Positions 40,621 through 42,718 of a stretch of DNA of 64,000 nt are shown piece by piece. The position numbers were made by a program, and so were the translations under genes. The stretch covers positions 805-64,804 of the forward strand of contig JAGORN010000001.1 in the NCBI GenBank assembly GCA_018062805.1, in the 5' to 3' direction. Each line of letters starts with the position of its first letter. The first letter of the stretch is position 1. A model generated the notes under the pieces. The model was not told the origin of the DNA. It worked only from the letters and a program-made list of their open reading frames with translations, and ran no database searches. This DNA is from Candidatus Saccharimonadota bacterium. GTDB taxonomy: Bacteria > Patescibacteriota > Saccharimonadia > Saccharimonadales > CAIOMD01.

Positions 40621-41163
40621 ATGGAAACTTATGGTTATAAGAATAAAGAGCCCAAGCAAGTATTTATAGATATTGCAGTGCCGGCAGATGCTGAAGAAAT
40701 TGATAATATAATGAAAGATACTTGGCGGGCAATTTATCTATCGCCAGAAAACGGAGTCAGCCAGCAGTGGCTGGATGAAACGGCTGAAACATTCAGCTCG
40801 GAATATATAGTTGAAAAGTTAGAAAACAATAAAGATAACCCGAACCATCTTTTTATATTAGCTAGAGCTCCAGACGGCCAAATGTTAGGTTTTTTACAAG
40901 GCATAAAAGAGCCCGAGTTTAATGAGCTTCGGTCAATTTATTTGTCTACCGACCAAATTGGCAAGGGAACTGGGGGCTTACTTATGCGCCATTTTCTTAA
41001 TTGGGCAGATAGTACTAAACCCAGCCACTTAGAAGTGGCTTCATATAACAAAAGGGCAACTGGTTTTTATGAACGGTATGGTTTTAAGAAAACAGATGAA
41101 AAGATAGAAAAATTTTTAGGTGTGATACCCCAAACTCGCATGGTCCGCCCACCAATAAAATAA
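40621..41163 (+). CDS. GNAT-family N-acetyltransferase
   Basis: The QIGKGTGGLLMRHF (Q/RxxGxG/A acetyl-CoA loop) and ATGFYERYGFKK motifs. Confidence 0.8.
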   Translation: METYGYKNKEPKQVFIDIAVPADAEEIDNIMKDTWRAIYLSPENGVSQQWLDETAETFSSEYIVEKLENNKDNPNHLFILARAPDGQMLGFLQGIKEPEFNELRSIYLSTDQIGKGTGGLLMRHFLNWADSTKPSHLEVASYNKRATGFYERYGFKKTDEKIEKFLGVIPQTRMVRPPIK

Positions 41164-41284
41164 ACTCTATTTTTTTAGAAACTGAACTATAGAGTTTTGT
41201 AAATGGGTTCATAGTGTCCAAATTGTATTAACATAATCTTTATTGTAAAATTACAGGTAACGGTAATAAAAGGAAAAATTCAAC

Positions 41285-42718
41285 ATGGAAGAAAATAATG
41301 AGCAAGCTCCGCAGCAGCCTAACCCAGAATATCAACAACAATTCCAACAACAAGCAGATATTTATAATGAACAAGAAAATACAGATTATAAGTCAGATTT
41401 GGGTAACCGTTCTTTTACTGAAAAAATTATGTTCACAAAACCTGAACCGCCTATTGAAATGACTGCAGTGGACATGGCCCATGAGGAGGCGCTAACGGTA
41501 GATTCTGTTATAAATAAGGCGGTTGAAGCTGGCTCGGAAGATACGCCTCAAGAAATTGCCGAAACCGTTTTAACTAGTAAAGAATTCGGCCTAAAAACAC
41601 CTGAAGAGCTAGAGAGAAGGGAACGGTTACTTAGAGACGGAACCGAAGCAGTGGCAAAAGTTTATAGCGCGGACATAGATGAATCTTGGGAAGAAGTTGG
41701 AAGAGTAACTAGGAAAATGAGCCCTGAAGATGCTGTTCAAATGCGGATGGCACTAAGAGAACTAGTTAGTGACTATATTGAAACTTGTATTAAGGCTGGT
41801 GACAAAGAAGACCTAACTAAGATTGCGTTAGAAAATAGCATAGACGGTATCGGCGGAGTAGAAGCTTACAAAGATTTTCCAAGAGAAATTATTAACTTAG
41901 AAGCTTTTCAGGGCAAAATGGCTGGGCACATCGAAGATGGCACAAGAAGACAAGGATATACTTTTGAGTCAAACGCTGTGTTAGTTAGAAGCCGAGCTGA
42001 AACGGTGACATCTAATGGTCTAATGGAGCAAGAAGCCCTAAAAGCAGTCATTGAGGGCGAAGTTGTTCAGGCGTTTTGCCAAACAGGCATCGAAGATGGC
42101 ACAAGAAGACAAGGATATACTTTTGAGTCAAACGCTGGGTTAGTTAGAAGCCGAGCTGACTGGGTTAGAGATCAACACCTCATGACTGATGAAATAATAG
42201 ATAAGGTTATTAAAAGTCAGACAATCCAGGAATTTTGCCAAACAGGCATCGAAGATGGCACAAGAAGACAAGGATATACTTTTGAGTCAAACGCTGTGTT
42301 AGTTAGAAGCCGAGCTGAAACGGTGACATCTAATGGTCTAATGGAGCAAGAAGCCCTAAAAGCAGTCATTGAGGGCGAAGTTGTTCAGGCGTTTTGCCAA
42401 ACAGGCATCGAAGATGGCACAAGAAGACAAGGATATACTTTTGAGTCAAACGCTGGGTTAGTTAGAAGCCGAGCTGACTGGGTTAGAGATCAACACCTCA
42501 TGACTGATGAAATAATAGATAAGGTTATTAAAAGTCAGACAATCCAGGAATTTTGCCAAACAGGCATCGAAGATGGCACAAGAAGACAGGGATATACTTT
42601 TGAGTCAAACGCTGTGTTAGTTAGAAGTCGAGCTGATACCGTAACGGCATATGACCTAATGGAAAAGGCTAAGGCTGATGCAATTACTCAGGCGGCCTTA
42701 GATAGCATGCGACGATAG
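41285..42718 (+). CDS. acidic repeat protein with five 53-aa tandem repeats (unknown family)
   Basis: There is no signal peptide. Repeats begin (G/T)(H/G)IEDGTRRQGYTFESNA(V/G)LVRSRA and alternate between two subtypes in the order A-B-A-B-A'. Confidence 0.75.
   Translation: MEENNEQAPQQPNPEYQQQFQQQADIYNEQENTDYKSDLGNRSFTEKIMFTKPEPPIEMTAVDMAHEEALTVDSVINKAVEAGSEDTPQEIAETVLTSKEFGLKTPEELERRERLLRDGTEAVAKVYSADIDESWEEVGRVTRKMSPEDAVQMRMALRELVSDYIETCIKAGDKEDLTKIALENSIDGIGGVEAYKDFPREIINLEAFQGKMAGHIEDGTRRQGYTFESNAVLVRSRAETVTSNGLMEQEALKAVIEGEVVQAFCQTGIEDGTRRQGYTFESNAGLVRSRADWVRDQHLMTDEIIDKVIKSQTIQEFCQTGIEDGTRRQGYTFESNAVLVRSRAETVTSNGLMEQEALKAVIEGEVVQAFCQTGIEDGTRRQGYTFESNAGLVRSRADWVRDQHLMTDEIIDKVIKSQTIQEFCQTGIEDGTRRQGYTFESNAVLVRSRADTVTAYDLMEKAKADAITQAALDSMRR
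41929..42718 (+). repeat. five in-frame 159-nt tandem repeats; 41929-42246 and 42247-42564 form a perfect 318-bp duplication
   Basis: Units start at 41929, 42088, 42247, 42406 and 42565. By direct comparison unit 1 equals unit 3 and unit 2 equals unit 4, base for base. Unit 5 diverges after about 70 nt. Confidence 0.9.

Follow-up and report, generated by a model that had tools for sequence, protein, structure and literature searches.

A narrowly distributed Saccharibacteria protein with a probably copy-number-variable array of predicted helical repeats

Size-variable tandem-repeat proteins occur in small-genome, host-dependent bacteria, as exemplified by the TRPs of Ehrlichia, the ankyrin VNTRs of Wolbachia and the Vlp/Vsa proteins of Mycoplasma, and are known there as secreted proteins or surface lipoproteins. 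They share with the protein described here an acidic character and in-frame tandem repeats that vary in number between strains, but have no relation to it in sequence or fold. The alpha-solenoids, represented by armadillo and HEAT proteins and by designed helical repeat proteins, resemble our array in consisting entirely of helices, three to a unit, and in having stacked repeats with a variable loop at the surface, whereas their units span 42 residues (ARM) or about 40 (HEAT) rather than the 53 seen here. The closest analogue appears to be the Periscope Proteins, among them SasG/Aap, Rib, Sgo_0707 and CdrA, which reside at the cell surface and carry signals for export and anchoring (Whelan et al., 2021; PMC8201768), although such surface signals are missing from our protein.

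In the Periscope Proteins, as in the protein studied here, an N-terminal non-repeat domain precedes a tandem array of long, near-identical folded repeats, the number of which differs between close strains, apparently through intragenic recombination, and neither array can be resolved by short-read assemblies. Among the features that define the class, we recovered the high DNA identity of long repeats (2 x 318 nt at 100%) and the variation in repeat number between close strains (from 1 to 7 units, at the level of assemblies), but not the location at the cell surface. Furthermore, the protein differs from the Periscope Proteins in that its three-helix units belong to an undescribed family, and in that two old subtypes alternate, with homogenised heads, instead of one uniform unit being repeated.

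The gene is located at positions 41285-42718 on the forward strand of the window, the 64,000-nucleotide stretch of a Candidatus Saccharimonadota genome that was analysed here, and all features of the gene given below lie on the same strand. According to the list of open reading frames it encodes a protein of 477 amino acids, with a conserved N-terminal domain followed by five repeat units; its entry in NCBI nr has no name and is assigned to a 66,780-bp contig. An earlier note on this DNA had described the protein as acidic and signal-less, and both properties were borne out: the pI is 4.61, the maximum Kyte-Doolittle score in a 19-residue window is 0.88, and the hydropathy scan revealed no signal peptide, transmembrane segment or other hydrophobic stretch. 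Likewise, the C-terminus carries no wall or membrane anchor, and the N-terminus is acidic and rich in Q and E. By reading the sequence we located a Shine-Dalgarno-like AAGGA (41270-41274) 10 nt 5' of the ATG. A consensus scan marked a weak promoter-like element, TTCATA-18-CATAAT (41208-41237), but such sites were no more numerous than in shuffled sequence, and the promoter call is therefore weak evidence. An AT-rich inverted repeat, AAACTCTAT-(18 nt)-ATAGAGTTT, at 41162-41197 begins inside the stop codon of the upstream GNAT gene and may be a weak terminator; it was not called by the consensus scan.

The N-terminal domain (amino acids 1-215; 41285-41929) consists of a Q/E-rich start, which is probably disordered, and a helical domain in which the motifs AVDMAHEEAL, EFGLKTPEEL and KDFPREIIN are invariant in two alignments. 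With a dN/dS of 0.05-0.1 the domain is under strong purifying selection.

The array that follows was recovered by two programs. Tandem Repeats Finder reported, for 41929-42636, a period of 159 (4.5 copies) as well as a period of 318 (2.2 copies, 99% matches), and a repeat finder returned four in-register copies placed 159 nt apart. The identical 318-bp tandem copies announced in the earlier note, 41929-42246 and 42247-42564, matched base for base in a direct comparison; together they form a perfect 2 x 318-nt tandem duplication, (AB)2, at 41929-42564. The exact period-318 run is in fact 342 nt long (41929-42270 equals 42247-42588), and a chance origin of a perfect 318-nt repeat is impossible. 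In codon phase, however, the units start at 41930 and not at 41929. Unit 1 (41930-42088) is of subtype A and unit 2 (42089-42247) of subtype B, both of 53 amino acids and with a DNA identity of 73.6% to each other; unit 3 (42248-42406) is an exact copy of unit 1, and unit 4 (42407-42565) an exact copy of unit 2. The array is closed by a terminal unit, T, of 50 amino acids (42566-42715), which begins with the same head as the other units but has a distinct capping tail, …LMEKAKADAITQAALDSMRR, that contains no Cys and is conserved across all alleles. The unit order is thus A-B-A-B-T. It had previously been read as five 53-residue units in the order A-B-A-B-A'; the first four stand, while the fifth is not an A unit, since only its head is common to the others and it ends in ...DSMRR. 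For the same reason the FCQTG-type motif with its Cys, which had been attributed to the end of all five units, concludes only four of them and is absent from T.

Variation in the number of units was found among close relatives in public assemblies from this lineage and its sisters, where arrays of 1, 2, 3, 4, 5, 6 and 7 units occur. The corresponding homologues are 262/265, 318/319, 371, 424, 477, 530, 583 and 590 amino acids long, with steps of 53 amino acids. Beside the A-B-A-B-T array of the window itself, an N-domain identical to that in the window precedes arrays of the form A-T (P0028 on 4 contigs, and P0030), A-A-T (P0001/L006, the flanks of which match the window at 99.9% and 99.2% identity) and A-B-T (P0026 on 8 contigs); a further A-B-T allele, P0032, has one N-domain substitution relative to the window. 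A sister haplotype is represented by T alone (L020), B-T (L019), A-T (P0031), A-B-T (P0002, in 10 samples assembled at k=141) and A-B-A-B-A-B-T' (NCBI MCB9839591.1, on a 230-kb contig). A more distant lineage contains A-B-T, A-B-B-T, A-A-B-T and A-A-A-B-B-T, and in another lineage there are seven 54-residue units, with an identical array in two JGI samples. Some of these alleles come from low-coverage or small-k assemblies and are possibly mis-threaded, such as A-A-T, which stems from a 5x SPAdes contig. Judged from the assembled sequences, the window allele appears as the (AB)2 state of a series of which (AB)1 and (AB)3 are found in other assemblies.

At this level of assemblies, the suggestion in the earlier note that the repeats are a hotspot of copy-number variation agrees with what we see, including arrays of 2, 3 and 5 units behind one and the same N-domain. 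Its further suggestion of phase or size variation can be upheld for size only: every unit is a multiple of 3 nt (159 or 162 nt), so on/off phase variation is excluded and it is the length of the protein that changes, rather than its expression state. All fetched alleles with a complete array are open in frame. In a separate observation, one metagenomic allele (L025:3001-3577; WBZL01010684.1) lacks about 62 nt of the N-domain sequence, located between nt 269 and 329 when counted along the L007 gene, which leads to a frameshift and a stop at 99 amino acids; the contig ends where the array begins, and the allele could represent a pseudogene variant or an assembly error.

The units themselves are mosaics. 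The head of about 72 nt, together with the 15 nt that end the preceding unit, is nearly identical throughout an array, and the middle of the unit defines the two subtypes. Head sequences agree at 94-97% within an array (97-100% among the five units of the window) but only at 71-76% between lineages. For the tails, on the other hand, identity is 75% across lineages inside one subtype, but falls to 44-49% when the A and B units of one array are compared. The comparison of the window allele with L007 illustrates the pattern, with differences at unit positions 24 and 33 that recur in each of the two units compared, A and B. The homogenisation extends to synonymous sites. Hence the heads appear to be under concerted evolution, by gene conversion or unequal exchange, and the A and B tails seem to be old paralogous subtypes common to several lineages. 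The idea that recombination maintains the homogeneity of the repeats, raised as an option in the earlier note, thereby finds support in heads that are identical within a gene, synonymous sites included, and different between lineages. The zero divergence between the two copies in the window also points to a recent event.

The allele comparisons support a mechanism that acts on the junctions between units, where the final 15 nt or so of one unit and roughly the first 50-72 nt of its successor are the same throughout a gene. Homologous recombination out of register, or slippage during replication, within these common sequences would lead to gain or loss of 159-nt units or of 318-nt A-B doubles, and gene conversion would keep the heads identical. 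In L019, an allele of the sister haplotype, a B tail follows an A-type head (Val at unit residue 17), and the N-domain matches the one in the A-B-T allele L007 at 100% identity; this unit is exactly what a single misaligned crossover, falling in nt 50-72 of neighbouring heads, should produce. A recA gene is present in the genome to which the window belongs (G000), and a recO-family gene was found at the matching position of a syntenic locus (L001). As a side note, recA in G000 is split by a 100-N run, C12:28197-28296 (L037:1348-1878), which is flanked by the parts encoding the N- and C-terminal portions of RecA and by a recX-like gene. The locus offers a clean natural example of mosaic concerted evolution, in which homogenised heads and two old tail subtypes are combined in a single unit.

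Selection is also distributed unevenly along the unit. In codons 3-18, which correspond to the loop and the start of helix 1, dN/dS is 0.5-0.6, as compared to 0.12-0.16 elsewhere in the unit. Residues 3-18, approximately, evolve fastest between lineages and yet are the same across all units of one protein. Six loop types were distinguished: DGTRRQGYTFESNAVL, AGTTLYPNRFDWSAEA, QGSARPGYTFESNARE, EPTKSYNAESLRTAIPF, APTSNGNFDWAAKEI and NATRRATDTFESNARL; the allele of the sister species G012 (L003) has loop type APTSNGNFDWAAKEI. A different loop type is present in L018, which shares 99.4% DNA identity with L020 in the N-domain. The N-domain dS of this pair is 0.03 whereas the repeat dS exceeds 1, a saturated distance. 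The cassette in L018 thus came in by recombination and did not arise by mutation in place.

Structure prediction with AlphaFold2, based on an alignment of 11 sequences, gave a pLDDT above 90 for residues 210-477, approximately, and below 50 for the N-domain; for the array alone (residues 205-477) the pLDDT was 93.9 and the pTM 0.85. In the model each unit is composed of three helices of about 17, 8 and 16 residues. When two models were compared by Foldseek with the PDB and with BFVD, a library of viral structures, no match reached E<0.001, and the TM-scores were nearly all at or below 0.3, with a best value of 0.40 in the PDB. The best Foldseek rows were designed helical repeat proteins and armadillo/HEAT-type proteins, among which the designed armadillo proteins had E-values of 0.08-0.12 and a TM of about 0.15. 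There was no ARM or HEAT profile match in Pfam and no superposition at TM>0.5. A profile search of PDB sequences yielded nothing below E=0.1, and NCBIfam, PHROGs and PADLOC produced only weak matches, inflated by the duplicated units and lost in the 2-unit allele. The predicted array is thus a helical repeat of the general alpha-solenoid kind without a specific solved analogue.

In a word-indexed search of 5.8 billion proteins, relatives were collected in 10 clusters, while an exhaustive HMMER search of 1.84 billion representatives found 13; almost nothing was added when the distant members were used as a profile in the word-indexed database. The gene is present in 2 of 23 species genomes in the family and in 2 of the 401 sampled in the class, and the sole relative in a collection of species-representative genomes comes from an uncultured Candidatus Saccharibacteria bacterium. 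Three other species of the genus are without the gene. Distant relatives from other metagenomic bacteria (P0012-P0021 and L026) are 19-28% identical to the window protein and have the same N-domain motifs (DxAHEEAL, EFG.K and MPxE[IV]) and the same repeat architecture, with 2-4 helical repeats of about 50 amino acids that contain a G[LI][ML] motif ('GLM' repeats). These repeats have diverged from each other, with no recent duplication, unlike those of the window protein. The N-domain and the repeat architecture thus appear to be old, and the homogenised, variable array seems peculiar to the lineage of the window and its sisters. A literature search on tandem-repeat proteins in Saccharibacteria found nothing relevant. 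We conclude that this is an undescribed, very narrowly distributed family of helical-repeat proteins, restricted in its variable form to a few Saccharibacteria lineages.

In the close relatives the gene is preceded by the gene for a GNAT acetyltransferase and followed by TauE, whereas the distant relatives have unrelated contexts and no conserved neighbourhood. The neighbourhood offers no hint of the function. The sister species differs from the window in both flanks, with a gene for a 241-amino-acid multi-pass membrane protein, possibly EamA-like, inserted between the GNAT and repeat-protein genes (L003:948-1673, as compared to 41164-41284 in the window), and without the downstream TauE gene, which indicates that the surroundings of the repeat-protein gene are themselves variable. 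A distant member of 440 amino acids with three diverged repeats (L026:2680-4002; OBEQ010813890.1) was seen once directly after rpsL and rpsG, a position that is occupied by fusA in most bacteria.

Our interpretation of the locus as a real, in-frame coding VNTR with a variable number of copies, changed by recombination in the shared heads, seems likely to us from the sequence comparisons, but has to be weighed against the quality of the assemblies. The duplication in the window could be an artefact, in which case the true array would be A-B-T, an array of another length or a mixture of forms, and the assembler would have threaded a loop too often or too few times. The window is part of the largest contig (66.8 kb) of a draft genome of 694,595 bp that is 87% complete and comprises 49 contigs with six 100-N gaps, which suggests a scaffolded short-read assembly. 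Furthermore, A-B-T is the common form behind the identical N-domain, on 8 contigs. All unit boundaries have about 64 nt in common before a V/G SNP is reached, and about 86 nt before the tail that distinguishes the subtypes, so that assemblers with k below that length must guess the path; k-mers of 55-77, as used in de Bruijn graph assemblers, cannot order units that share ~64-86 nt. The expectation that the array is a trouble spot for assembly was confirmed by contigs that stop at or within it (L021, L023, L024 and L025) and by a gap inside the array of the sister species. At k=141, arrays with duplicate units are expected to break contigs, and such breaks were seen. The gap in the sister species is a 100-N scaffold gap (L003:2402-2501; CAZJDP010000030.1) placed exactly inside a unit head, where both sides continue one unit, ATCGAAGCTCCCACT|TCAAACGGT. 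Against an artefact in the window, a second and independent assembly from NCBI likewise contains the B-to-A junction, as (AB)3. Given reads across that junction, (AB)2 would be the minimal path, which would make a collapse likelier than an over-expansion; if such junction reads exist, under-counting would be at least as likely as over-counting in the window array. We therefore consider an artefactual duplication possible but not the better explanation, and would attach a similar, limited doubt to the exact (AB)2 arrangement, which depends on the path taken by the assembler through the loop. The locus is variable in copy number whether or not (AB)2 is right for the window. A-B-T was assembled independently in 10 samples with k=141, above the ~86 nt common to each boundary. 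Copy numbers at this locus are nevertheless not to be trusted in short-read metagenome-assembled genomes.

Other alternatives concern the identity, the variability and the location of the array. The 5-unit protein scores above the Pfam cut-offs for ToxB_N (31.3 bits against 25) and AcrF2 (28.2 bits against 27), but these scores are sums over duplicated units, in the same way as the PHROG and PADLOC matches are inflated, and the signal is gone in the 2-unit allele P0004, which has no Pfam match at E<=0.01, and in all 13 family members. It is extremely improbable that the repeat is one of these domains, and the view that it is no known domain was sustained, as no match survived in the Pfam, NCBIfam, PDB, viral-structure, PHROG and PADLOC searches. 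We also considered the possibility that the loops are diversified by a diversity-generating retroelement or another targeted mutator. Genomes of the candidate phyla radiation (CPR) often carry diversity-generating retroelements, and the loop is strikingly variable between near-identical backgrounds. However, no RVT_1 or other reverse transcriptase match was obtained in the 87% complete genome, and the substitutions affect all four bases, not adenines alone, with synonymous sites saturated too, which points to import of a diverged cassette instead of mutagenesis in place. This origin of the loop variation is largely refuted, and we give it next to no weight. More credible, though still unlikely, is a Periscope-type surface protein or secreted epibiont effector that is exported without a signal peptide and whose repeat number sets the reach or valency towards the host. 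Near-identical folded tandem repeats, length variation at the level of strains and an N-terminal domain before the array fit the Periscope class (PMC8201768), and the protein is acidic, varies between strains and has a hypervariable loop, with a whole repeat cassette imported into a near-identical N-domain background. The lack of a signal peptide, transmembrane segment and wall anchor, which extends to the distant relatives, and the lack of secretion genes nearby argue against it.

Turning from location to function, our best proposal, put forward tentatively, is that the array acts as a rod or scaffold for binding, adjustable in length and in valency, with N identical sites, and that the conserved N-domain provides a constant function. 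The putative partner could be a host, phage or self protein. A more specific and distinctly speculative version, to which we attach less credence than to an exported protein, is that the array serves in nature as a modular scaffold for recognition. In that case every unit would present the same hypervariable loop and helix start, cassettes would be swapped and valency tuned by copy number, and the protein would be a strain-specific determinant of the interaction with the host bacterium or with phages. If true, this would add a new type of variable binding protein, with a conceptual parallel in the repeat systems of TALEs or of variable lymphocyte receptors.

As obligate epibionts, the Saccharibacteria have very few genes that vary between strains, and only a minority of the factors behind their host specificity are known. 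The repeat-protein gene appears to display one of the clearest signatures of rapid, recombination-driven variation in length and cassettes, and its helical fold is confidently predicted and unmatched. This combination makes the gene a candidate for differences in interactions at the level of strains, and a potentially useful marker for strain typing.
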